A stretch of DNA of 45,504 nt from an uncultured Flavobacteriaceae bacterium (GTDB lineage: Bacteria; Bacteroidota; Bacteroidia; Flavobacteriales; Flavobacteriaceae). The stretch covers positions 1 through 45,504 of the forward strand of contig CAZGUB010000001.1 of the NCBI GenBank assembly GCA_964528935.1, in the 5' to 3' direction. Within the stretch, counting starts at the first letter, position 1. Every line of letters starts with the position of its first letter. Shown here piece after piece: positions 1 to 19,429 of the stretch. The position numbers were made by a program, and so were the translations under genes. Under the pieces are notes generated by a model. The model saw nothing but the letters and a program-made list of their open reading frames with translations. It had not been told where the DNA came from and ran no database searches.

Positions 1-3000
1 CTAATTGACCAGGACTGCTACCTATTACGGTCGCTCTGTTGATTATTTGGCCAGTAAATGCAGTATTTTGAGTAATAATGTAAGATGCCTGATATCTAGC
101 AATTTCACCTGCAACTAGGGTCCCGTCAACTGAATTATTTGAGCTAGATGTGAAAACCATGTTTCCATCATAACTTAAAGTGGTACCATTTCCATCTTGA
201 AGAAGGTCTACTATTCTTATATTATTGATCACTGCATTTCCTGTATTTTCAATAACTATAAGGTATTCAATACGGTCGCCTGTATCTATTTTTGAATTAT
301 TATTTAAATCAAAATGAGTTGAGGACTTAATTATATCAATTGAAAAATCAGTAGATGTAAGAATTATAGTAGGGTCATTAGTTGTGTTTCCATCTGTATC
401 ATCTCCATCATCAGATACGTCAGAAACATCTCCATTATTCCCTGGTGAAGAAGCAATAACAGAAACGGAGTTAATTACGCTACCGGAATTAGCAGCAACT
501 TGCTCAATCGTGTATGAAGTTGTATAGGTTAAAGCTTCTCCTGAACTAATGGTATTATCCGCATCAATGATATTGAAGTTAGATCCCATCTGGGGATGTG
601 CCGAACAATAATAATATAAGTTATCAATACTTTGATCAACTTTTATTTGAACAAATGACCCATTATTTCCAGCAATTCCCTCCACTATTACATTATCTGA
701 ATATTCACTTCCAGCGTTATGGGTCCCATCTGAATTCAAACTCAACCTGAATGGATGACCATTATTACTAGTATCTGACTGGATAAATTTGTAAGTCTTT
801 CCTCTTTCTAAATTAATTTGATTACTCTCAACACCATCTAGAAAATATTTATTTCCTTGTCCAGTATTTGAGACAGTTATTGAGATTTCCCGAATTGTAG
901 TTTCAGTAATTGCTGAGGATAAACTTAATGGATTTCCACTGCCGTCCACAATTGTATCAGTAATTTGAAGATCTGTCAATTCTATGTTACCAGTATTTTG
1001 AACTAAAATTGTGTAGACAATTATATCACCAGCATCATTTGTTTGGTTACCATCGTTTTGAACAACTTCGGCAATCTTAGTTACCTCAATTGATACATCT
1101 GACATTGTCTCAACAACTGTTGGATCATCAACTGTATTTCCATCTGTATCATCACCATCATCTGATACGTCAGTTACATCATTGGTGTTTCCAGGACTAG
1201 AAGCCGTTACAGAAACAGTATTAACTATTCCTCCAGTATTTGCTGAATTTTGATCTATTACATATTGTAGTTCATAAACTAAACTCCCCCCGGCCAATAA
1301 TGTAGCTTGGCTAGAACCATCAGTAGCACTTAGTAAATTTGGATCAGGGGTATTTATTTCATTTCCGTTGTTATCTCTTAACAAATCAGATAAATTAACC
1401 CCACTTAGAGTAACATTACCCGTATTTGTGACGGTTATAGTATATTCGATTAAATCTCCCTGATCGTTCTGACCGTTATTATTCGTATCAATTACATTTG
1501 AGATTTTAGATATTTCAATACTAGGTCTTGGTGTTATTTCAATAACAGTAATATCATCCTCTGTATTACCATCAGTATCATCTCCATCATCCGAGGTATC
1601 ACTAACATTGTTTGTCTGTCCTGGACTACTTGCTATCGCCACAGCTGTATTCCTTATCTCTAGCGTTGCCGCTGCTGCATCTGATATTATATAATAAGCT
1701 ATATAAGTTGCCGTCTCTCCTGCCTGCAGTGTTCCCGTATTTGAACCCCTATCTGATCCAGAGAATGATGGACCTGTACTCATGGTCAAGGCATCCCCAT
1801 TACCATCCGTTATTGTGTCGCTTACCGTTAAACCAGTTAAGGCAACATTCCCTGTATTCTCTACAGTTATAGTATAATTTATCACATCTCCTGCTCCCAC
1901 AAATCCATCTCCCTCATCAGTTACTGTGGCTATCTTAGTTACTTCTATTGCAGGTACCGGATCGATATCTACAACTGTTGCATCATTAGCCTGAGCTGTG
2001 GTCGGATCATCACTCTGATCCGTGACTATATTTGATCCACCTTGACCACTAGCTTGGACAGAAGCTCTATTAATTATTCTTCCAGAATAAGAAGCTTCAT
2101 CAGTTATTGTAAAATTCGCAGTAAAAGTTACAATCCCCGAAATAGCAATAAAGGTTGCGCTGGATCCATTTGTAGCAGAAGCAAAAGTTGGAAGAGTTGT
2201 GAGTGCTAAATTATTAGAGTTTCCATCAGTTAGAATATCAGTAACCAATAAATTCTCAAGAGGAACTCCTCCGGTATTTGTAACACCTATTTGATAATAA
2301 ATAATATCTCCAGAATCAGTTAGATTATTTGCGTTGGTGTCAGATACAGTTGCAGTTTTAATTATTTCAATTGAAGCTTCAGCGGAAGTACTTATTTCAG
2401 TTTTATCATTGAATTCATTACCATCCGTGTCATCTCCGTTATCACTAATGTCACTAACATTTATTCCTCCACCAATTGCGGATACGGTTACTTGGTTTTT
2501 AATTTTTGTAGAGAAAGCAGCTGCAGGTTCGATTGTGTAGGTAGCAGTGTAAGTAGCAATCTCAGAAAATCCTAATTTCCCCTCATTAGAACCATTTGAA
2601 GAGGATACATATGTCGGTCCGCTATCTAGTGATAATTCATTGTCGTTATTATCAGTTAATAAGTCGATAAGTGTAATACCTGTTAAAGTAACATTTCCAG
2701 TATTAACAACTGTAATAGTATAGACAATTGTATCGAGTGGATCATTAACTCCATTTGAGTTATTGTCTAGTACTTGAGCTGTTTTAGTAGCCTCAATTTT
2801 AGGATTGGGAGAAATTTCAACTATTGTTGGATCATCTTCCGTGTTTCCATCTAAATCGTCTCCATTATCTGAAGTGTCAGTAACATTATTTGTTTGTCCT
2901 GGACTACTTGCAGTAGCAATTGCACTATTAGAGATAAATGGTGTCTGGGCTGCAGCAGCTGAAATAAGATAAATAGATGTGTAGGTGTGATATTCCCCTG

Positions 3001-5819
3001 GCAGGGCAGTGCCCTGAGGGGAACCTTTACTTCCGTTAAGTCCGTCGTATGTTGGTCCGTTAAGCAAATTTAATACCTGTCCATTACCATCGGTCAAGAT
3101 TTCTTGAATAGAAATTCCTGTTAGGGTCTGCTCTCCATTATTTTCAACTTTGATTGTATAATAAATCAAATCATTCTGACCAATTACACCATCACCGCTT
3201 GAATCAGTTACAGAGACAGTCTTTGTTACTTCAAGTGATGGAGTAGTTGTAATTGAAACTGCTGTCGGATCCTCAGGGGTTACAGTATTTGGATCATCTG
3301 AAAGGTCATCAACTGTGACACCTTGTGGAGTTGTCCCAAAGGCTTGAGCAACATTAGAAACTTGACCCGAGTCAACAGCCTGTTGGTTTACAATAAAGAA
3401 GCCTATGTAATTGACAATTTCACCTGGGATCAAATAACCTTGTGGTGAACCTCTATTTGAACCAGCATAAAACAGTCCACTACTCATATTTAGTAGAGCT
3501 CCAGTTCCATCAGTCAGCGTATCGCTAACAGTAATATTACTTAAAGTGATATCACCTGTATTTTGGATGGAGATGTCATATTGAAGAATATCTCCCTTCC
3601 CTAATTTATTATCTCCATTGTCTGTAACCGAAACTGTTTTTTCTACGAGTAATGATGGTGATGAAGTAAATGAAATTGCAGTAGGATCGTCACTATCTAT
3701 TGTAGTAGGGTCATCTGATGTGTCACTAACATTTAAGCTATTTCCAGGACTACTAGCAATAATTGTCGCCTGATTAATTAGGCTTCCAGAATCTATTGCA
3801 TTTTGATCAATAATAAGATCAGCTTGATACTCTATTTGCTCTCCAACAAGAAATTGATTTGGACTGCCTGAAACTAATGAGGGGGGGTTGTCAAATGAGT
3901 ATGAATTACCATTTCCATCTGTCAATATATCTTGTATCGTTACATCTCTTAATGTAAGGCCTCCGGTGTTTGAAACGACTATAGAATAAGTAATTCTATC
4001 TCCAAGACTAGCCACTCCATTACCATCGAGATCAGTCAGAGATGCTGTTTTACTAACCTCCAATTCAGCCAAGACATTTATATTAATGTTTGTTGGATCA
4101 TTTTGCTCTACCGTGCTTGGATCATCTGATGTAGCTGAAGCTACTGAGGTAACGTCAAGAACGCTACTTGCGCTTACAAGCACTTGATTAGAAACACCTC
4201 CTGCATCGACTGATTGCTGATTAATTGTGAATCTAGCTTCAAATATAGCTACTCCATTAACATCAATTGAAGTGGCTGTTGCATCTGTACCTGAAACAAA
4301 GGATGGTGATGAGGTCAGTGTTAAATCTAATCCATTATAGTCTGTAATTATATCATTTAAAGAAAGGTTATTTAAGTTAACATTTCCCGTATTAGAAATC
4401 GTAATTGTATAATCAATTGAGTCTCCTAAGTCAATTATATTATTACCGTTATTTTGAGTAACAGTTGCAGTTTTTGAAACTTCAATTTGAGGAGTTAAAT
4501 CAATATTAATAATTGTAGGATCATCTAAAACATTCCCGTCTGTATCATCATTATCATCGCTAATATCAACTACTATTGTTCCGTCTAGATTGCTTGTTGC
4601 AGATACAGTAACGGTATTAATTATGCTTCCAGTTAAAGCAGCAGCCTCTTGAATTACATATGAAGCTCTATAACGAGTAGTTTCACCTGGGGCCAGGCTG
4701 CCCTCAGCAGAGCCTTGACTAGAGCTACCGTTTTCGTATGTTGGACCTGATGTTAGGGCCAATACTCCTCCATTAGCATCAGTAATAGTATCAACTAATG
4801 TTAGAGTCCCAACTGAGGTGATCCCAGTATTTTCTATAGTTATAATGTAGTTAATGGTGTCTCCGCTACCAACTACTCCATCCTCAACTCCATCAAATAC
4901 TGTTGCAGTTTTTATAACACTAATTTGAGCTGCAGCAAAAAGTGGAACTTCCGTTAAATCGTCTTCAGTATTTCCATCATTATCAATCCCATCATCGCTT
5001 ATGTCATTTACATCATCAACTCCGAAAGGACTGGAGGCGGTAACTTGTACATAGTTTTTGACTCCTCCAGAGTTAAATGCTTGGTCATTAATTATGAAAA
5101 TAGCTCTATAGACAGCTGACTCACCAATTTGAAGGGTTCCCAAAGTTGAACTTTGAGAAGCTGATATGAAATAGGGCCCATCATTGAGACTAAGTGGATT
5201 GTCATCGTCATCAACTAAAACATCTTCTAAAGTAATGCTTGTTAATATTGTGTTTCCTGCATTTTCAATTGTAATTATAAATCTTATTACATCCCCAACA
5301 GAAGTCTCTCCATCTCCATCTGAATCAATTATCTCATATGTTTTTGTAGCCTCAATCTTTCCGTCAGGTTCCATTATTGTGATGGTTGGATCATCCTCTG
5401 TGTTTCCATCTTCATCATCCCCGTCGTCTGAAGTATCAGATACGTTTGCTGATTGTCCTTTTGAGTCACCTGTTACAATTAAACTATTTGAAACAAATGG
5501 CGTTTTGAATGCATCTTGATTTATCGTGAATTGAGCAGAGTAAACCAAAACTTCCCCGGGAATTATAGTTCCTATTGGTGAGCCAGCTGAAGCAGATACT
5601 CTAATTGGTGGTGCTGTGTAGTTGAGTTGTTCACCCAAGGAATTTTCAAATATATCGGTCAACGTTAATCCAGTTATAGTAGTTTCTCCGGTGTTAGAAA
5701 TAGTAATAGTATAGCTTATTAAATCATTTAAGTTTATTTTTTGGTCATTATTTATATCCTGAACTACGGCTGTTTTTTCGACCTCTAATAATGAAATAGC
5801 TTCAATTTGAGTTACAGTA
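1..5819 (-). repeat. C-proximal array: 11 plain DUF11-like units, one unit carrying a cupredoxin-like insert, and one partial unit at the window edge
   Basis: Linker markers lie near 5385, 4950, 4515, 4095, 3680, 3265, 2825, 2400, 1980, 1550, 1120 and 370. Translated examples: GDLIEYTITVTNTGNVTLSGV, GDVINYTITVENTGNVALTGL, SDTSDDGDDTDGNTEDD. Confidence 0.85.
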
Positions 5820-8800
5820 GGATCGTCTTGCTGAGCCGTGCTTGGATCATCCGAAGTAGCACTAACTTGTGTTGATCGGATTGTTGTGGCGTTAACAATG
5901 GCTGAATTTCTTATCTCTCCCTTGTCAACCGCTTCTTGATTAATTTGATAAATCCCCGTGACAGTCATAGAACTATTAGAACTCAACGTTCCAATATATT
6001 GTCCAATATTTGCAGATCCTTTAGATTCTGACTGTCCATTAGTGAAAATATAGGGAGTAGCTCCAGCTCCTTGTTCAAGTTGCATACCCCATACATACGT
6101 ATAGGTACCATATACCCCAGGATTAAACCCTACAACTCCATTGGTTGCAAATTGACTAGTAGTAAATACCAGCTCAAATCTTTCAAACTTATTATTAAGC
6201 GAGAAGGTAAAAGTTTTTGATGCTGTTGATGAAGATAAATGGGTAGATTGGGCGCCAAGATTAAATCCTTCATGAGCAAATAAAGTAAAGTTCGTTCCCA
6301 AAGTTCCTTTTGCATAAATTGATAATGTGTAGGTAGTATTTGGTGAAAAAACGTAATTGTGTTCGTAAACTGCACTTGCAGTAGTTCCCCTTACTCCCAT
6401 AGCTCCTATATCAGATGAGGTAACAAGATGACCTCCTCCTGGATCGCTGGTGTTTTTGCTAATGATTCCTCTACCTTCTATCAAATAACCTTCCCACCCC
6501 AGGGAACCTCCAGTTGCACTTAATTGAGCGTTGCTAAACATCCCAGGCCTTAAATAATATTCAATTCCATCAGGTATAGTGTATGGTGTGCCTTGCTCTT
6601 GAATATTTAAGCTTGAAATATTCCCAGATCTATTATTATCGATATTATACGTTGGACCAGTGAGTAAATTAACAGCAGCTTCATCAGTTGCAATTTGTTG
6701 AATTAAATTATTATTGTTAGGATCTTTTAATTCATCTGTTATTGTAAAGTTTGAAACATCTGTATTACCTAGGTTAGTTACTGTGAATTTGTATTTAAGT
6801 ACATCATTTTTATCTATTATTCCATTTCCATTAACATCAATGTGATCATATTCCTTTAACAGGTCAATTCCTGAAACCTCTGGAATTTCAAATACTGTAG
6901 AGTCATCCAATTCTGCAGTATTTGGATCATCAGAAATATCAGTTACAGGTGTAGAAATACCAGAGGGTAAAGCGCTAACAACAATACTGTTTGAAACCAA
7001 CCCCGAATTGACCATAGATTGGTCAAGTGTAATAGATCCTTGTAAAGTAATATATCCTCCAACAAGAATTCTATTAAGGTCTGATCCGTTATTTGAGCCT
7101 GTTTGTGTTAAAGTCGGTGAGGCCAATAAATTATTATTCCCATCTACTATAGTATCTACTAATTGAACATTCAATAAATCAATATTGCCAGTATTTGAAA
7201 CAGTGATTGTATAGGTTATTATGTCTGCAACTCCTATAACTCCATCTCCATTATCACTGGTAAGCTCTACCGATTTAGTAATATTAATTCTTGGATCAGG
7301 ATTTAGTCTCACCTCGGTTTGATCATCCGATATGTTACCATCAGTATCATCCCCATCGTCTGACTTATCATTAATAACTCCTGCAGTTGAACTTGCCGAT
7401 GCAATTACGGAGTTTGCAATAAATGCACTACCCATCATTGTTCCAGTGATCGTCGTAGAGGCAATATATGTTGCAGTCTCACTCACTTGTAATGTCCCCT
7501 CGGGTGAACCAGCTGAAGAGCTAATAAATGTTGGACCTACTAATAAATTGTTATAGTTATTTAAAAAAGAATCGTAAAGAGTATCAGAAAGTGTTAATGA
7601 TGTTAACCTAATATTTCCAGTGTTAGTAACTACAATTGTGTAGGTGATGATATCCCCTGGATCATTTAAGCCATTAGCATTCACATCTGAAACGGTAGCT
7701 GTTTTAGTAACTTCAATTGATGGCAATCGAGTTAGTGTTACAATAGTTGGATCATCACCCGTATCATCTTGACCAGTATCTCCATCATCAGAAACATCTG
7801 TTACAGTCCCGCTTTTTGTGTCTGTTGCAGTAAATACAATTGAGTTAGATAATCCGCCGGACTCTAGATCTTCTTGAGTTACTGTATATGAAACTGTATA
7901 AGTATAAGAAGATCCAACATTTAAATCAGTAATAGTCCCGGAGGAAGTGTTTGATTGTTGTATTACAGAAGAGCCGTCTAGATTAAGTCCGGAATTATAA
8001 AAATACCACCACTCATCACTGTATATACTACCAAACTGATTCTCTTGGGTCTTTCTTAAAATTGCTCCTGTCCATAAATTTTGATAAGTATTAAAAGAAA
8101 AGCCTACAACAGTATTATACTCGTCAATGGTATTCCACTCCCACAGATAATAGCCAAGAGAAGATAGTTGTTCTACCCACCTAGAATAGGTCTTTCCATT
8201 GTATGATGCAAAGTATGAATGACCATTATATTGTCCTAAGAAAGTGACAGTTACCCCTGGTATAGCAATAGAATTCACTAGCTCGTCAACTTCTATAATA
8301 GCTCCATAGCTTGAATAAGAAGGTTGATCCTGAAGTCTTCTATTAGTTGAATTAGTGTAAGTGTATAAATAAGATGCATCATAAGAGTAGCCATTATTTG
8401 GTTCAGAACTATACCATAATGATGTTACGTCTTCTGACTCCAAGCCGCCGACTTGACCTGAAATAGAAGAGGATGAAGTTAAAGTAATTGAAGAGGTCTG
8501 TAATATTAAATCCCCGTCTAACTGAATTAGAGTATCAAAGTATGAAAGATTACTTAAATCTATATTTCCAGTATTAGTGACTGATATTGTAAATATGACA
8601 TCATCCCCTACGCCTATTTCACCATCCAGGTTATTGTCTACAGTTGAATAAGTTTTAACAGCTTCCAGCTCAGGGTCATATAATAAAGACGTTACAGCTG
8701 GATCATCAACAGTATTCCCGTCAGTATCATCTGCATTGTCAGATATATCAGTAACACTTTGCGATCTAGAAGTAATTATTATACTATTTGAAATTACTCC

Positions 8801-11800
8801 TGAATTAATATCATCTTGTGATATAGTATATTCAAATGTAAAACTAAGACTACTTCCTGCAGGAATTATATCTATAGTTTTTGTTTGTTTAGTGAGTTGA
8901 TTTCCTAAAACATCATTCCATCCTTCATCATATGAAATTGAGGAATTGGTTGGATCTGATTTTAATATTCCTGTCCAAAACCAAGTATTTGTATTTAATT
9001 CTTGAACAATCCAATCATGTTCCTCTTGAGAGTTGGGAATATACATATGAGCATCCTCCCCGAAATTATTCTTAAAATTATTATTAATAGAACTAATAGA
9101 ACTATTAAAACCAGAGGTGCCTGTAGACCTGTAATAATAATTATTATCGTAGCTTCCAATAAAAGTATACCCAGCTGGGGTTGCTGGCTGGGAGTTTTGA
9201 TTTTCAATCTCCGCAATATGATAATTTGAATAGCTCTCATAAATATTTCGATATTTTCCCTGATTTACCGAAGGGTTAATCATTACATAATTGTATCCAC
9301 TACTACTAGGCAATGCATTAGAGGATGGATTGCTAGAATCCCAATTTGTAAATGGTGCATTTGAAACTTCAGCAGAGGGATCCTCAGCCTCTAAATACAG
9401 ATCTGGCCCAACACCATATCTATAATCAACTCCATCAATATTCTCTACTGTCCATCCTGTACTATTATAATATGAGTAAATAAAATCTGAAGCAATGGGA
9501 CCTTCTTCAAGTTGAATCCCCCAAAATCTTGAATTACTACTTAAATCATTACCAGGGGGCCGGATACCTACTCTAGCATCTCCATTAATCGTAGAACTCG
9601 TTGTGAAAGTGTAAGTATATCTATTTAGTTCAGCAGTCTGATCTAACTCTATATCCTGAGATTTAAGGGCATTTTCCCAATTATAAGATAAATCAGATCC
9701 ATCGAATACAACAAATTTCCATGGACTATTAACTGCAGCAGCTTTTTTACCATAAACCGATACTGTATATTGAGTATTTGGTTTTAGTCTGACATTTTTA
9801 TAAACATAACAATCTTCACAAGAATTACCACTTCCATTTCTGTAGAGATACCACATGTAAGTGTCATTATCATAATTTTGATTAGTAACACCTGAATCCC
9901 CATCCTGATAATTGGGAAATGTTGAGCTCACATAGCTATCATTTCTATTGTTTAGATGTAAGTAAGGAATTTGTCCATATCCATTATCACCGACAGTACT
10001 TCCATAATTTGTACCTGATTCTGACCAGCCCCATTCATTGTCATCAACCGCCCAACTATATTGAAAATAATTTTGACTTTTTCCCACTAAAGGCTTGATT
10101 TCGATTGATTTTGTTCCCGTAGCGGTTGTCATGATGTCACTCAATTCAAAATCCTCCAAGTTGGTTTGTCCAGTATTAGTAATATTTACCTGATAAGTAA
10201 TAATATCTCCTATATCATTTTCTCCATTACCATTTTCATCTGAAATATTTATTACAAACTTTTCAACTTCAAGACCTTTGGAGTTGTCAAGGTTTACAAT
10301 AGTAGGATCTCCCAACTCGGCGGTATCTGGATCATCACTAACATTTGTAACTACTCCAGATGTCCCACCAGGTGTAATAAAACTTGAGACAATTGTTACT
10401 TGATTTCTTAACTCCTCTGCAGAATCTATCAGCTCTTGAGTAATTTCTATGGTCAAGGAATAAGTTGCTGAACCACCCGGGGGAAGATAGGTTTGTCTTG
10501 GATCAAATGTTCCTACGGTAGTTAGAGAATTAGATTTTGTTATTGGATTATCATAAGTGTATGTGTATATAGGAGAAGGCCCTACGCCCTCTTCAATCTG
10601 AAATCCGTAGAACCACATCCCAGTATTATCATTTCTAGGAGGTGCAATTCCAATCCTATAAAATTGTCCTGGATTCGAGCTACTTAAAAAAGTATGAGAA
10701 AACCTCTTCACTTCAAACTGTGAAAAAGATTTAAGGGGGGATACTTGTGAGTTATCATAATTGGTTATGTAATTAGAATCACTATCACTCCAATTATTAC
10801 CATCATGCCAAATGAATCTGAAACCTTTATAATATTCCGAACCAGTATAGGACGAACTGTTTGGCGTTGCCCATACCGAAACAGTATAATAGGTATTTGG
10901 TTTGATAAGTGCTGGATCAATTTCTTGGTAAAACCATCTTTTTGAATTGCTATCCCCTTCTGAAAAGTTACCAGTAGTATTCCTTAAATTTATAAATCTG
11001 TTAAAATAATTTGAATCAGCTAAATCTGCCATTGAACGCCCATTCCATGAAATATTAGAGGGTAGAATTTGATAACCGTCAACAAATCCTGTATTTGCAC
11101 TTGAAGCTCCTGACAAATCAGAGAAAAAGACCTCTATCCCGGCTGGTTGATAATGAAGTTCGCTATAATAACTTATGTAATTATATCTATCAGATCCTGT
11201 TTTATGCCAATAATTACTATTGAATGAAGCATAACTAAAATTGGAGGATCTTGTAGCTAAATTTTCAAGAGTGATGGTAGATTGAAAGGAGGAACTTTCG
11301 TGTTGCAAATTATAGAATCCTAGGCTTTGATCAAGTTCATTTTTTAATTCATCTGTCATGGAAATCTCTAAATCTACAATTCCCGTATTTGTTATTACAA
11401 TTGAGTAGCTAATTTTATCTCCAACAAGCATAAGACCATCTCCATCAACGTCAATCTCAGTAGCTGATTTTGTTATTGATATTCCTGGAAAAAAACATGC
11501 TACATCATAATTTAATTCTTGGTAATCTTTTATGTTATTTGAATTTGAGTCCAACGGAGTAGTATAACCGTCTGAACCGCTAGTTACTTTTCCCCATCCG
11601 TCTTGAGTGATTGGATTGTTTCCAAGAAGACCATCCCCATCATCATCTGTATAGCCTGCCTCAATGACATCACTACAGCCATCATCATCTGAATCCAACT
11701 CAAAAATGTCCAAAATTGTATCACTATCAGTATCTGTTGGAATAACTAACTCAATTCTGTCATCTGCACCATTAAAATTATCATCCACAAAACCTTGGTC

Positions 11801-14800
11801 ATTTGAATCTAAAACGCCATCATTATTAGAATCTAAAATACCATTTCCCCCCTCTACAAGGTCATATATCCCGTCATTATCTGAATCTAAATCGAAACCA
11901 TTGTCTACTCCATCCTGATCAACATCTCCAAAACAATTTTCTTCTGCGCTTAGTGCTATACCGTCTAATTGAACCGACACATTTTGACCTAAAGCGTAAG
12001 CAGAAATTAATATTGCAATTCTATAGGTATTTGCATCGGTTGTAAATTGAAAGGTGTTTTGCGTCCAATTTGTAGGTGCCTCTGTGAGCTGATCTACTGC
12101 AAAATCTGTATCTAATGATTGAACTTGGAGTAGTGTTGATCCTCCATCCCCATGTGACGCTGTCAGTAAGCCCCCATCTCTATGATAAAATGTTACATTA
12201 TATGTAGTGTTTGGGTAGACAAACTCCTCTACCATTATTCTATCAAATTCTCCTGTTCCAATCGAGCTCTCATCCCAAAATTCTCTGGTATTTGTTGGGC
12301 TAGTAGTCCCTGAGAGGTAGGCATTTTGTAGAAGTTCAATATAGTATTGTCCTTGTTGTGCTGACCATGTGTAATTATTACTATCTGTTCTGCTATCCCA
12401 TACTTCTCCGTCTCCATTTACTGAAGAAAATGGCGGTGCAACAACAGAGTTTGGGTATTGTGAATTTTTATTTTGAGTAGGATTCACAGGGCCATTTTGT
12501 AAATAATAAGATTCAAAGCTATTCCCATCTAATGCAAAATCAATACATTTTTCAAAGCTGTCTAACACCCCATCATTATCATCATCAATATCTAAATTAT
12601 CAGGAATGCCATCACTATCAGTATCAAGTCCTAGTGCAACAAAGGTTGGGTCATCTTCTGTGTTTCCATCATTATCGTCACCATCATCACTTACATCAAT
12701 TGAGTCGAACTCCAGTGGATTTGGATTTCTAAGTGATGATCCAGTTACTCTAACAGAATTATATACTCCTCCTTCCTTTAGTGAAACATCATTAACGGTA
12801 AATGTAGCTGTATAAGTTATTATTCCCCCTGCAGTTAGAGTAGTAGAACTAGAGCCATTAGTTCCACTTGAAAAAGTTGGTGAGGAATTTAGGCTTAAGG
12901 TCTTTCCCCTTGCAGAAGTTAAAGTATCCTCTAGAGTTATATTTTCAATTGTGTCATTTGAAGTATTAGATATTGTAATTGTAAATACAATCAAATCAGA
13001 TATGTCATCTCCTACGTTACCATTATCAATCTTAGTTGCAGTTTTTACCACTTTGAAAGAGGGCAATACACCTGTATAACTTATTGTTTTATCGTCTTCA
13101 AGGTTATCATCATTATCATCACCATCATCAGAAAGATCTTGAGCTCTAATTTCGGCTGGTTGTGAAAGTCCATTTGGATAGTAATAACTTATAACCTCAG
13201 CCTGATTCATAACTCCTCCGATTGTTTCATCTTGAGCAGTTACAGTATAATTGACTGTCCAAGTTGCAACTTCCCCAGAGATAAGAGTTCCTTGAGGGGA
13301 GCCAAGCGAGTTAGATTGAAAGTTTAATCCGCTGTCAAGAGATCTTGCATTGCCTTGAATATCGGTAATTACATCATTAATAAAGATTGATCTAAGAGTT
13401 ATGTTACCCGTGTTTGTTGCTCGTATAGTGTAGGTCAGGATATCTCCCTGCGAGATCACTCCATCACCATCTAAATCATTATTTACTACTGTTTTTACTA
13501 CATCTAAACTTGGGGTTGATTGTATTTCATAAACTGTTGGATCATCTCCTGTGTCTCCTACGCCAGTATCTCCATCATCACTAGTGTCATTAACAAAAAT
13601 ATTATTCGATAGATTTGCAGCGATAACAATAACAGAATTACTAACACCCCCATTATCAACATTGGACTGAGTGAGAACATAGTCAAGAGTATATGTTTTA
13701 ACTTGACCAGGCGCTAAAATATTGGGATCATTAGTTGTTGGTGAGGATAACAAAGCAAGATTATTTCCCAGTAAATCCGTTAAAGTTTCAGTAAGGATAA
13801 AGTCTTTTAAAGATTGATTACCTGTGTTTGTAATTTGAATCTCATATCTTAAGGTATCTCCATTTCCAATTTCTCCATCATTATCATTATCAATTCCTTG
13901 AACAGTTTTGGTAACTACAATTGATGGGCTTCCTATTAGAGGTGTTTCCACCGTGTTAGAAGTAGCAGTAACAGTTGATGTACTTCCTGTTCCTGTGGGA
14001 GCAATACCAATTACAGAAGCCACGTTTGATAATCCTCCATAATCTAGAGCAAGCTGGTCTATAGTATAGGAAATTCTATAGTCTGCTCTTTCACCTACTA
14101 AAAGTGTTTCAGAATCAGAATCGATTGTGTCACCTATAAAAGTTAAAGATTCCGTAAAAGATAGTTGACCTGTTTCAAGACCAGAGAGCGAGTCATTAAT
14201 TGAAAGTTGAGAGATGTCAACATTCCCTGTGTTACTTATTTGAATAGTATAAGTTACTATGTCTCCAATATCCGTGAGGTTATTATTGTTAACATCAGTA
14301 ATCGATGCAGTTTTAGATATTACAAGTTCTGGAACTGCATCTATAATAAATTCAGTAGGGTCATCAAATAAATTTCCATCAGTATCATTACCATCATCAC
14401 TTAAATCTTGAACGGCAGTTAATGTTGGATCAAGCATTGTAATAGATGCCTGATTAGAAATTCCTCCATTATTTATTGCCTGTTGATTTACAAGAAATGT
14501 TGCTATAAAAGTTGCCGTCTCTCCAGGTGCAATAACACCATATGAGGATCCGGCACTATTATTTGAAAAATTAAAGCTAGTAAGGGTTGGTGTATATTGT
14601 CCTGAAATGGTAGTAAAAATATCCTCAATAACTAAAGACCCTCCCCCTCCTCCAGGTGATCCTAATGTATTATTTCCGGTATTCTCAATTGTTATAGTAT
14701 AGTTTACTAAATCGCCAGATGATAATTCACCATCTGAGTCATTATCGGTATATGACTGAGTTTTTACAACTTCGATTGACGGATCAGGAGTGATGGGAGT

Positions 14801-17689: not shown

Positions 17690-19429
17690 TTAAATAGAGT
17701 GAATGAAAGAATTAAGTTTTGATCCGTCTTTAAGGTTTAACTTTTTGGATACTCTGTATCTTTGAGATTCAACAGTTCTTTTAGAAATGCTAGAAATCAT
17801 TACAATATCATCAACAGATAAATTCATTTTAATATAAGCACATAATCTAATTTCTGTCTTTGAAAGATTGAACTCTTTGTTAAGCTTAGTGAAAAAATTT
17901 GGGAATACATCATTAAAAATCTTTTCAAATTCTGAGTAGTATTTTTCAGCTTTTAACAACTTATCAAATTCATTTTCCAATATTTTCTTGTCAATTTGAT
18001 TTTCAGTTAGGTTTACTGCAATTTTTTTCTTTAAAAGTCTGAGACTTTCATTTCTTTGTAAGATAAAATTTGTTTTGCTTAACAGATCCCTCTGATTGTT
18101 CTGGAGTTGAATTTTTATGTTTTGATTAGTTAGCTCGAGGGATTTTGAATTAGCTTTTTGAAAATCATATTTAGATTTCACCAAAAGCACTGTAAGTGTA
18201 AGCAAAAGTAAGCCTATAAAAAGAAAAATAAAATATAAATTATATTTCTTCATTTGGATTTCGTTGTCATTTTCAAGATTTATTATTTTAATTTTTGTTT
18301 CTAATTCTCCCAAACTTTTAGTTAGAGCATTTGAATTAGTGTTTGCTTGAAATGTTATAATGCTATCCTTGATGCGAATTAGGTCATTTAGTCTGTTTTC
18401 TTTAGAATAAATCATCTCCAATACATCAAGATTATATTTCCTCTCTTTACTACTTAAACCTTTTTTTTGAAGATTTAGGTTGGCCAAATTCTCAGCTTTT
18501 GAGAATTCTCCAAGCCCTTTATAACACTGGGCTAATCTTGTACTTAGTTCATATTGTATAGATTGAAAACCCGTAAAATATTTTTGACTTTTTATTAGAT
18601 ATTTTATTGCAATTTCAAAATATTTTTGGGATTGGAAGTATGCTGCCGTAACCAAATATGAATAGCCATAATTGCGCCTAATCAAGGTATTTTTTGAAAG
18701 ATTAGGATCATAAATTATTTCTTTGTACAACTGATCTGTTATTTCAAGTTGACCTAGCGCATCCTCACCTTTTCTTTTTAATTCAACTGCTAAAACTTGA
18801 GCATAAGAATAAAAGATATCTTCATAATTATTATCAGTGATTTTATTCTCTAAAATTTTATTATAAATTTCATAAGCACTATCTAAATCTCCAGTCAATT
18901 CGGCTATTAATCCCAGGTTTGAAGATACAGTATTCAGCCCATTTACCTTTGCATCAGAATCTGATAATTTTTGAAATAATGACTGTGACTCCAAATATTT
19001 GATTTTAGCCAAATCATATCTTCCAGCATGTAAATATACATTTCCAATATTTAGTATTATCCATGGAGGAAAATTTAAATTGGGAAATTTTCTTTTTGGT
19101 ATATCAAGTTCCCTGTAAGTTAAAATAGCTTTTTCGAAATAGTTAAGGGATGAATTATAATAGCCATTTTCAAGAAAAATCTGACCGATTCTGCCATAGG
19201 TTTGTTGAATAAAGTTGGTTGGCGATAAATCTTTTGCCAATTCTGAAAATTTTATGGAAAAATCAATGGCTTTAGAAGGATTAGTAAATTCATACTTTAA
19301 TATGGAATCTCTTGTGTTAACTAATTCCTGTCCAATTGATAGAACTAAATTTCCGTAAGAAAAATATGCCAAACACAACAGGGTTAATTTGAAATTCTTG
19401 TGAAAGTATGATGAATATAGCTTAACCAA
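17690..19429 (-). CDS. One-component transmembrane regulator: N-terminal signal/anchor, TPR repeats, one TM helix, a coiled coil and a C-terminal LuxR-type HTH
   Basis: TPR-like segments include YYNSSLNYFEKAILTYREL, GNVYLHAGRYDLAKIKYLES and AQCYKGLGEFSKAENL. The TM helix is YNLYFIFLFIGLLLLTLTVLLV. The C-terminus LSKTEIRLCAYIKMNLSVDDIVMISSISKRTVESQRYRVSKKLNL looks like a LuxR/GerE HTH. The start must be TTG at 19429, because an in-frame TAA lies two codons upstream and the first internal Met is more than 300 aa downstream. Confidence 0.75.
   Translation of the reverse strand: MVKLYSSYFHKNFKLTLLCLAYFSYGNLVLSIGQELVNTRDSILKYEFTNPSKAIDFSIKFSELAKDLSPTNFIQQTYGRIGQIFLENGYYNSSLNYFEKAILTYRELDIPKRKFPNLNFPPWIILNIGNVYLHAGRYDLAKIKYLESQSLFQKLSDSDAKVNGLNTVSSNLGLIAELTGDLDSAYEIYNKILENKITDNNYEDIFYSYAQVLAVELKRKGEDALGQLEITDQLYKEIIYDPNLSKNTLIRRNYGYSYLVTAAYFQSQKYFEIAIKYLIKSQKYFTGFQSIQYELSTRLAQCYKGLGEFSKAENLANLNLQKKGLSSKERKYNLDVLEMIYSKENRLNDLIRIKDSIITFQANTNSNALTKSLGELETKIKIINLENDNEIQMKKYNLYFIFLFIGLLLLTLTVLLVKSKYDFQKANSKSLELTNQNIKIQLQNNQRDLLSKTNFILQRNESLRLLKKKIAVNLTENQIDKKILENEFDKLLKAEKYYSEFEKIFNDVFPNFFTKLNKEFNLSKTEIRLCAYIKMNLSVDDIVMISSISKRTVESQRYRVSKKLNLKDGSKLNSFIHSI

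Follow-up and report, generated by a model that had tools for sequence, protein, structure and literature searches.

Modules nested in a common loop of CLIPPER_2 repeat units in a giant, probably adhesive protein of marine Flavobacteriaceae

Split domains in known adhesins and in the present locus

In the RTX adhesins MpIBP, FrhA, and AhLap the ligand-binding domains, which include carbohydrate-binding modules (CBMs), "project out of companion split domains" (PMC12077191, PMC10865825), and these ligand-binding domains are found near the distal end of the adhesin (PMC12077191). Insertions are also known in the CnaA/CnaB-like isopeptide domains of Gram-positive pilins and adhesins, namely RrgA, Spy0125/Cpa, and GBS104 (PMC12617251). 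The domains DUF11 and DUF7507, lately renamed CLIPPER and CLIPPER_2, are CnaA-like immunoglobulin-like (Ig-like) folds in fibrillar adhesin stalks (PDB 9IFR), with a Lys-Asn isopeptide bond that is catalysed by an Asp; CLIPPER domains are described as uninterrupted stalk repeats with neighbouring adhesive domains, and insertions into CLIPPER or CLIPPER_2 are not mentioned (PMC12617251). Here we analyze a giant open reading frame (ORF) of an uncultured Flavobacteriaceae bacterium (assembly GCA_964528935.1, contig CAZGUB010000001.1), in which some of the CLIPPER_2 repeats are split by inserted modules. The whole stretch of DNA under study, positions 1 to 45,504 of this contig, is called the window.

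The locus resembles the RTX adhesins in being predicted to encode a giant fibrillar adhesin in which an Ig-like beta-sandwich is interrupted by a budding module of a ligand-binding type, often a CBM, although binding is a prediction in our case. As in the RTX split domains the termini of the module would be adjacent and the chain would re-enter to complete the sandwich, which we deduce here from the sequence. Graham et al. 2024 (Proteins 92:933), cited in PMC12077191, reportedly deals with the split domains of RTX adhesins as well. In other respects the locus is different, as the host is a CLIPPER_2 isopeptide-type stalk repeat and not a BIg-type split domain. No GGxGxD (RTX nonapeptide) motif is present in the 5840 residues, and the extender units are DUF7507 rather than BIg. 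Moreover, the split units here are ordinary repeats in the middle of the stalk and use one loop every time, and since a neighbouring GldH gene points to Bacteroidota, type I secretion is unlikely.

With the Gram-positive pilins our protein shares an isopeptide-type Ig-like host domain having a large insert between the bond-forming residues, the cross-link, which is predicted here, spanning the insert. In the GBS104-like Ig domain (PDB 3TXA), which comprises residues 137-211 and 587-717 with Lys188, Asp597, and Asn692 (PMC12617251), the insert lies between Lys188 and Asp597, whereas in our case it lies between the Asp and the Asn and hence in a different loop. Furthermore, the pilin inserts are vWFA, thioester, or CnaB domains of short sortase-assembled pilins, whereas here several CBM-like and lectin-like inserts occur in one Gram-negative protein of more than 5800 residues; a LPXTG motif was not found in the 5840 residues within the window. 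With the CLIPPER/CLIPPER_2 stalks, finally, the protein has in common the DUF7507 matches above the gathering score, the Lys/Asp/Asn triad, and the tandem units in a long, predicted surface protein. An earlier note on this DNA, made from the letters alone, had known of no description of such nesting for DUF11-type adhesins. In the literature searched we found no report of nested modules for CLIPPER or CLIPPER_2 either, but the host is DUF7507, and both RTX adhesins and Gram-positive pilins already provide examples of the principle (PMC12077191, PMC12617251).

Repeat units divided at one loop

The giant ORF extends on the minus strand over 2..17521 with the ATG at 17521. It begins with a signal-peptide-like segment and exceeds the window at base 2, the C-terminus lying beyond the window. 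Residues are numbered from the Met at 17521, residue i starting at base 17521-3(i-1). With a hidden Markov model (HMM) of the repeat unit, made by iteration from one plain unit of the protein itself, 30 units were found in the 5840 residues, the spacing from start to start being 135-152 residues and mostly 139-146. In Pfam the repeat corresponds to DUF7507 (PF24346), with 48.1 and 62.5 bits for plain units at a gathering score of 27, and DUF11 (PF01345) scores lower on a plain unit, close to its own cut-off. Judged by these scores the host family is DUF7507/CLIPPER_2, a relative of DUF11, rather than DUF11 proper. K7 and N104 do not vary across 20 plain units and D47 hardly does, and the distance from Lys to Asp in the units of the window, 40 residues, equals that in the Pfam reference protein (Lys72/Asp112; PMC12617251). 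The triad is kept in 24 of the 25 plain units of the window.

Five of the 30 units are split, each of them consisting of an N-half, an insert of 107-405 residues, and a C-half. The region 5820-11480 is coded on the minus strand, which the earlier note had not stated, and corresponds to aa 2014-3901; four of its six units are split and the fifth split unit is located at nt 359-1096. The features listed in this paragraph are on the minus strand. In split unit 1 the N-half (11273..11488, aa 2012-2083, HMM 1-74) carries Lys and Asp of the triad and is followed by jelly roll J1, a paralogue of J2 and J3 (10553..11272, aa 2084-2323, 240 aa), and by the C-half with the triad Asn (10292..10552, aa 2324-2410, HMM 54-138). 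In split unit 2 a gap of 405 aa separates the N-half (10106..10276, aa 2416-2472; HMM match aa 2417-2472, positions 3-57) from the C-half (8687..8890, aa 2878-2945; HMM match aa 2878-2944, positions 69-137), and this one loop holds two modules in tandem, jelly roll J2 (9452..10105, about aa 2473-2690) and the C-type-lectin-like C2 (8891..9451, about aa 2691-2877). Split unit 3 is composed of an N-half (8456..8674, aa 2950-3022, HMM 1-73), the C-type-lectin-like insert C1 (7994..8455, aa 3023-3176, 154 aa), whose segment order is apparently permuted, and a C-half (7736..7993, aa 3177-3262; HMM match aa 3177-3261, positions 55-137). Two plain units (6887..7723; aa 3267-3405 and aa 3410-3545) lie between this unit and split unit 4, in which jelly roll J3, a CBM4/9/16-like module (6035..6586, aa 3646-3829, 184 aa), stands between the N-half (6587..6874, aa 3550-3645; HMM match aa 3552-3645, positions 3-84) and the C-half (5807..6034, aa 3830-3905; HMM match aa 3830-3904, positions 61-137). 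In split unit 5 a cupredoxin-like insert (GHPF ... YYCSAHPQMG; 575..895, aa 5543-5649, 107 aa) is flanked by the N-half at 896..1096 (aa 5476-5542; HMM match aa 5477-5542, positions 2-67) and the C-half at 359..574 (aa 5650-5721; HMM match aa 5650-5720, positions 69-137).

The half-units are recognized by the unit HMM with E-values of 1e-14 to 1e-24, and the HMM coordinates of N-half and C-half are complementary in all five cases. The Pfam DUF7507 model breaks the five units at profile position 47-56 of 105, and in a MAFFT alignment all five inserts are placed between the 'GPTFxS' strand and the 'xxGSxxGxL' strand of the plain units. Thus unit HMM, Pfam, and MAFFT lead to the same loop in five units, which is the single insertion place that the earlier note had proposed. 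Its dimensions were accurate as well: a plain unit of about 143 aa agrees with the observed spacing, four expanded units out of six plus one at 370-1120 are the units which the HMM splits, and for the proposed expanded size of 250-537 aa we measure 251-534 aa including linkers. Separate tandem domains between complete units, named in the note as the finding that would speak for the opposite arrangement, are not what the HMM boundaries indicate at these five places, since they give half-units around the inserts.

We then deleted each insert in silico and matched the remainder to Pfam DUF7507 (105 positions). Every excised unit gave a single continuous match, covering positions 2-93, 12-103, 2-104, 4-104, and 7-99, with 45.6-61.4 bits, which is the range of the plain units (48.1, 62.5), whereas the same units with the insert left in reach 38-48 bits. 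The junctions of the inserts show neither duplication nor loss of a unit. The triad is kept in all five split units, its Lys and Asp lying ahead of the insert and its Asn behind. AlphaFold2 models were calculated for aa 3550-3905 and aa 2950-3262. Both host halves have a predicted local distance difference test (pLDDT) of about 82-96 in both models, with four host strands ahead of the insert and five behind (a CnaA-like sandwich has 7-9 strands); in the model of aa 2950-3262 the host strand 64-69 ('TLTSSS', corresponding to 'PTFxS') directly precedes the insert and strand 248-251 comes after it. With Foldseek neither model gave a match to a CnaA-like structure, and sequence searches of the PDB with whole expanded units returned nothing useful. 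For the double-insert unit aa 2416-2945 the MAFFT alignments misaligned jelly rolls onto the lectin part, and aa 2950-3262 was modelled in its place.

A genome scan with an alignment of the jelly rolls yielded 28 loci, about 24 of which are from marine Flavobacteriaceae or 'uncultured Bacteroidetes' genomes obtained from metagenomes or single cells. The related loci have intact ORFs of up to 6845 codons and keep the layout of the window in the same order, i.e., plain; a non-unit region with a jelly roll; split (jelly roll); split (jelly roll and lectin); split (lectin); two plain; split (jelly roll); plain. These relatives contribute 96 split and 367 plain units. In their split units the last position matched by the N-half is 51-67 (of 67) and the first matched by the C-half is 1-13 (of 73), so that the loop is the same in the relatives and in the window; the insertion points do not differ between units once these are aligned, and the search in homologues which the earlier note had suggested thereby gave a positive answer. 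In the relatives 95 of the 96 split units and 334 of the 367 plain ones have the triad; with the window included, 100 of 101 split units keep it, distributed over both sides of the insert. The split architecture, its common site, and the conservation of this site are hence directly observed.

The content of the loop varies. Across the relatives we count about 12 insert types of 107-715 aa at the host loop, which supports the display scaffold suggested in the earlier note. Among them are an insert of 686 aa in which an FG-GAP propeller (211.7 bits) is combined with Lectin_C (46.7 bits; L029:13574-15631), a Lectin_C-containing insert of 321 aa (52.5 bits; L025:12053-13015), and Fib_succ_major (79.9 bits) in an insert of 428 aa (L011:12887-14170), and some lineages have a jelly roll in place of the lectin of the window. 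The shared site and the varied inserts together identify the loop as a conserved site of exchangeable content.

Searches of protein databases returned fragments of orthologous genes only, the fragment P0001 showing 48% identity over one whole expanded unit. For such proteins the gene calls in the public databases are fragmentary and therefore the protein searches gave short pieces. In L001 (JGI 3300046170, a 1.28-Mb contig) frameshifts, probably long-read errors in the repeats, divide the orthologue of the giant gene among at least 11 called genes. An exhaustive search covered 1.84 billion representative proteins, and the 150 best-scoring CLIPPER_2 giants were examined, with lower detection power at that distance; a truly split unit is present in two of these 150, P0070 and P0144. 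In these two proteins from outside the clade 175-200 aa are nested at the same unit position (P0070 aa 1775-2066, P0144 aa 3320-3617), and the nested segment looks by eye like another Ig/CLIPPER-like domain ('GDEIGIVFRLNNAGEAPLTSI'). Most of the split candidates of the automatic screen of the 150 giants were divergent tandem units, e.g., P0059 and P0143.

Two further observations concern the plain units. The first unit (aa 46-185; 17383-16967, minus; position by eye) is without the whole triad, with Ile in the column of Lys, Ser in that of Asp, and Phe in that of Asn, and an alignment of 'ELEVKIF' at the Lys column, and consequently no isopeptide bond would be possible there. The Asp-rich C-terminal linker is missing from the units aa 191-340 and aa 1064-1195.

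The inserted modules

According to the earlier note the inserts comprise three jelly rolls, two lectin-like modules, and one cupredoxin-like module. This count is correct, and the lectin-like modules proved to be related to true C-type lectins, while the cupredoxin-like assignment is tentative, its family scores being weak.

The jelly rolls J1, J2, and J3 are paralogous with 26-34% identity (E = 1e-4 to 1e-8), and the motifs 'PNTTYTVSVY' and 'FWGxQLEEG' are common to all three. In Foldseek J3, over the two thirds that are well modelled, matched CBM16, CBM4, and a porphyran-binding CBM with a probability of 1.0 and E = 2e-5, the target-normalised TM-scores being 0.5-0.56. In this well-modelled part insert 4 (J3) has a predicted CBM-like fold, and J1 and J2 are tied to J3 by paralogy only.

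For the lectin-like inserts a profile was built from C1 of the window and 12 orthologues (13 inserts). In the PDB it found C-type lectin domains with E-values from 1.7e-9 to 1e-6, among them DEC-205 (1.7e-9), the snake-venom factor IX/X-binding protein (5.5e-8), and Dectin-1 (9e-7), and the orthologous insert in L014 reaches 26.6 bits against Lectin_C (PF00059; cut-off 22.6). This profile comparison shows the C1-type inserts to be relatives of C-type lectins. The matched part, however, is only the N-terminal 60% of the lectin domain, from beta1 through 'WIGL' to 'W.W'. The canonical order (beta1-alpha1-alpha2-WIGL ... EPN/WND-beta5) is not found; instead a segment 'W..EPNN ... D ... IIEVD', which resembles the C-terminal third of a lectin domain, is located upstream of the beta1-to-WIGL segment. 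When the two parts are swapped, the Lectin_C match widens to positions 18-104 in L013 and 14-95 in L008, whereas in the native order L008 matches positions 14-61 only and L013 not at all. These motifs and the segment-swap test suggest that the lectin-like inserts (7994-8455 and 8891-9451 in the window, and those of L008, L013, and L014) are circularly permuted. A profile of the upstream part alone found no lectin in the PDB, and hhalign of these inserts with the canonical-order lectin inserts of relatives was uninformative and gave no support for a permutation. In other lineages lectin-like inserts of canonical order, as judged by eye, occur in the same loop (L011:14594-15151, without Pfam match).

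Insert 5 contains the motifs 'GHPF' and 'YYCSAHPQMG'. The candidates for type-1 copper ligands, H47, C97, H100, and M103, are invariant in five orthologues, and C5639 is one of only nine Cys in the 5840 residues. A cupredoxin profile did not find a cupredoxin in the PDB but only antibody heavy chains, via the 'YYC' motif.

Proposed role, alternatives, and genomic setting

We consider it likely that the ORF encodes a giant fibrillar surface adhesin with a CLIPPER_2 stalk and with modules nested in one loop of its units. The stalk would be a chain of CLIPPER_2 beta-sandwich units bearing the Lys/Asp/Asn triad of the isopeptide fold class. In the module-bearing units, a mid-stalk cluster of four and one closer to where the sequence leaves the window, the chain would exit the sandwich past 'GPTFxS', fold one or two independent modules, and re-enter at 'GSxxGxL', so that CBM-like jelly rolls, C-type-lectin-like modules, and one cupredoxin-like module could emerge laterally from the stalk. 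In CnaA-like domains the isopeptide bond connects the first strand to the penultimate strand (PMC12617251). As Lys and Asp precede the insert and Asn follows it, the bond, if formed, would enclose the insert in a covalent loop, and a pull on the stalk would run through the bond and spare the module. The strand counts of the models suggest, more weakly, that the loop belongs to the N-terminal end of the unit, close to where the preceding unit joins it, and from there the modules would project to the side. The loop would be a permissive cassette site, at which the relatives hold other modules, and the likely role of such a surface fibril would be multivalent glycan binding on algae or particles. 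Secretion is probably of type IX, which is plausible because the gene neighbourhood indicates Bacteroidota.

Several of our results weigh against this proposal. Isopeptide formation, load bypass, glycan binding, and adhesion are predictions throughout. A C-terminal sorting domain was not found, as every related locus and assembly stops inside the gene. Regarding the inserts, J3 stays with 24.2 bits below the cut-off of Pfam CBM_4_9 (25.9), the lectin-like inserts of the window itself have no Pfam match, and Copper-bind (PF00127) gives 14.1 bits at a cut-off of 21.2 and this in only one of the five orthologues. Large parts of both modelled inserts are below a pLDDT of 50, and Foldseek with the model of aa 2950-3262 gave nothing significant, because the insert is poorly modelled. 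The structure prediction proposed in the earlier note for the expanded units resulted in two confident host halves, but the alignments contained plain units, so that this confidence is not independent evidence, and we infer the closure of the sandwich around the insert from models in which contact between the halves is not directly seen. Finally, a divergent fourth jelly roll is located in a non-unit region between two complete units (11489..12637, minus strand, aa 1629-2011), tandem and not nested. This jelly roll is flanked by Asp-rich repeats (DTDSDGIPDNLDIDDDNDGVLD ...) which by eye are like thrombospondin type-3 calcium-binding repeats, and the region is kept in the orthologues as the pattern 'C-36-J-152-N'.

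From this fourth jelly roll it follows that the protein uses a beads-on-a-string arrangement once, just outside 5820-11480, and the contention of the earlier note that modules are nested instead of strung like beads is true for the five units but not for this one. It could be argued that all the extra segments lie between units and that the flanking halves are degenerate, truncated units which do not fold together; many apparent N-half-only matches in other CLIPPER_2 giants turned out to be divergent tandem units (P0059 and P0143). We regard this as very improbable for the five units, given that the coordinates of N-half and C-half are complementary here and in the 96 split units of the relatives, that excision restores one full-length Pfam match per unit, that the triad divided across the insert is conserved in 100 of 101 cases, and that the junctions are free of duplicated or missing units. 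Even less credible, and in our estimation practically negligible, is an artefact of assembly or annotation in which a chimeric contig or collapsed repeats produced false junctions inside the units. The giant gene and its two neighbours do differ in the G+C content at third codon positions (GC3) from the remaining contig (0.22-0.30 vs 0.44-0.61), and the related long-read locus L001 is full of frameshifts, but about 24 independent genomes repeat the order of split and plain units, each time in a single intact reading frame, and the junction between the giant gene and the genes of higher GC is present in four independent assemblies.

More serious, though still unlikely, is the alternative that the modules are nested but serve as structural or enzymatic decorations or as spacers, the protein being not an adhesin but, e.g., a surface-layer or polysaccharide-capture component. 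The weak family scores of the inserts in the window fit this alternative, the ligand-binding role of the inserts is a prediction, a cupredoxin-like module is odd for an adhesin, and the inserts are mid-stalk, whereas RTX adhesins have their ligand-binding domains near the distal end (PMC12077191). On the other hand, the insert folds found here and in the relatives are CBM, C-type lectin, FG-GAP propeller, and Fib_succ_major, of which the first three are typical binding modules, and CLIPPER-type repeats typify the stalks of fibrillar adhesins (PMC12617251). We prefer the adhesin with nested modules.

In RTX adhesins and Gram-positive pilins a ligand-binding module can be recognized by the split domain around it, and such an adhesin would make this rule applicable to CLIPPER_2 repeats in Bacteroidota. 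Giant proteins of this kind in marine Flavobacteriaceae surface in domain searches as barely more than a 'repeat protein' (e.g., the source name of P0001), and interrupted units in them point to functional modules. The clade consists of uncultured marine flavobacteria, and the CBM, C-type lectin, FG-GAP propeller, and Fib_succ_major modules are candidates for the attachment to glycans of algae or particles. As one of its loops naturally accommodates inserts of 107-715 aa, the isopeptide-type domain is also a candidate display scaffold. Current understanding is not overturned by this and the functions are predicted. A bolder version, which we put forward tentatively and hold to be rather doubtful as a whole, is that the loop is an exchangeable cassette site spanned by the isopeptide bond, keeping modules from the 107-aa cupredoxin-like one to a 700-aa propeller-plus-lectin free of stalk tension, and that at least one cassette family is a permuted C-type lectin with its termini on the long-loop side. 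If true, this would mean a C-type-lectin topology so far undescribed and a ready-made, covalently stapled scaffold for protein display.

The neighbouring genes code for GldH, a PBP1-type penicillin-binding protein, RecA, and LpxR, and this neighbourhood indicates Bacteroidota. GC3 is 0.22 in the giant gene, 0.23 in the upstream TPR/LuxR-type gene, and 0.30 in the LpxR gene, and it rises to 0.44-0.61 in the genes rightward, with a sharp compositional break between 1-20670 and 20765-45504. This jump raised the question of a chimeric contig, which is ruled out by the four independent assemblies that have the junction in common (L030-L033). The break could result from horizontal acquisition or from strong amino-acid and codon bias. 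The gene directly upstream of the giant gene (17690-19429, minus strand) encodes a TPR protein of 579 aa with a weak C-terminal match to a GerE/LuxR-type helix-turn-helix (E = 3e-4). It is AT-rich like the giant gene, the pairing of the two is kept in L030-L033, and the protein is a candidate for a dedicated regulator of the giant gene.

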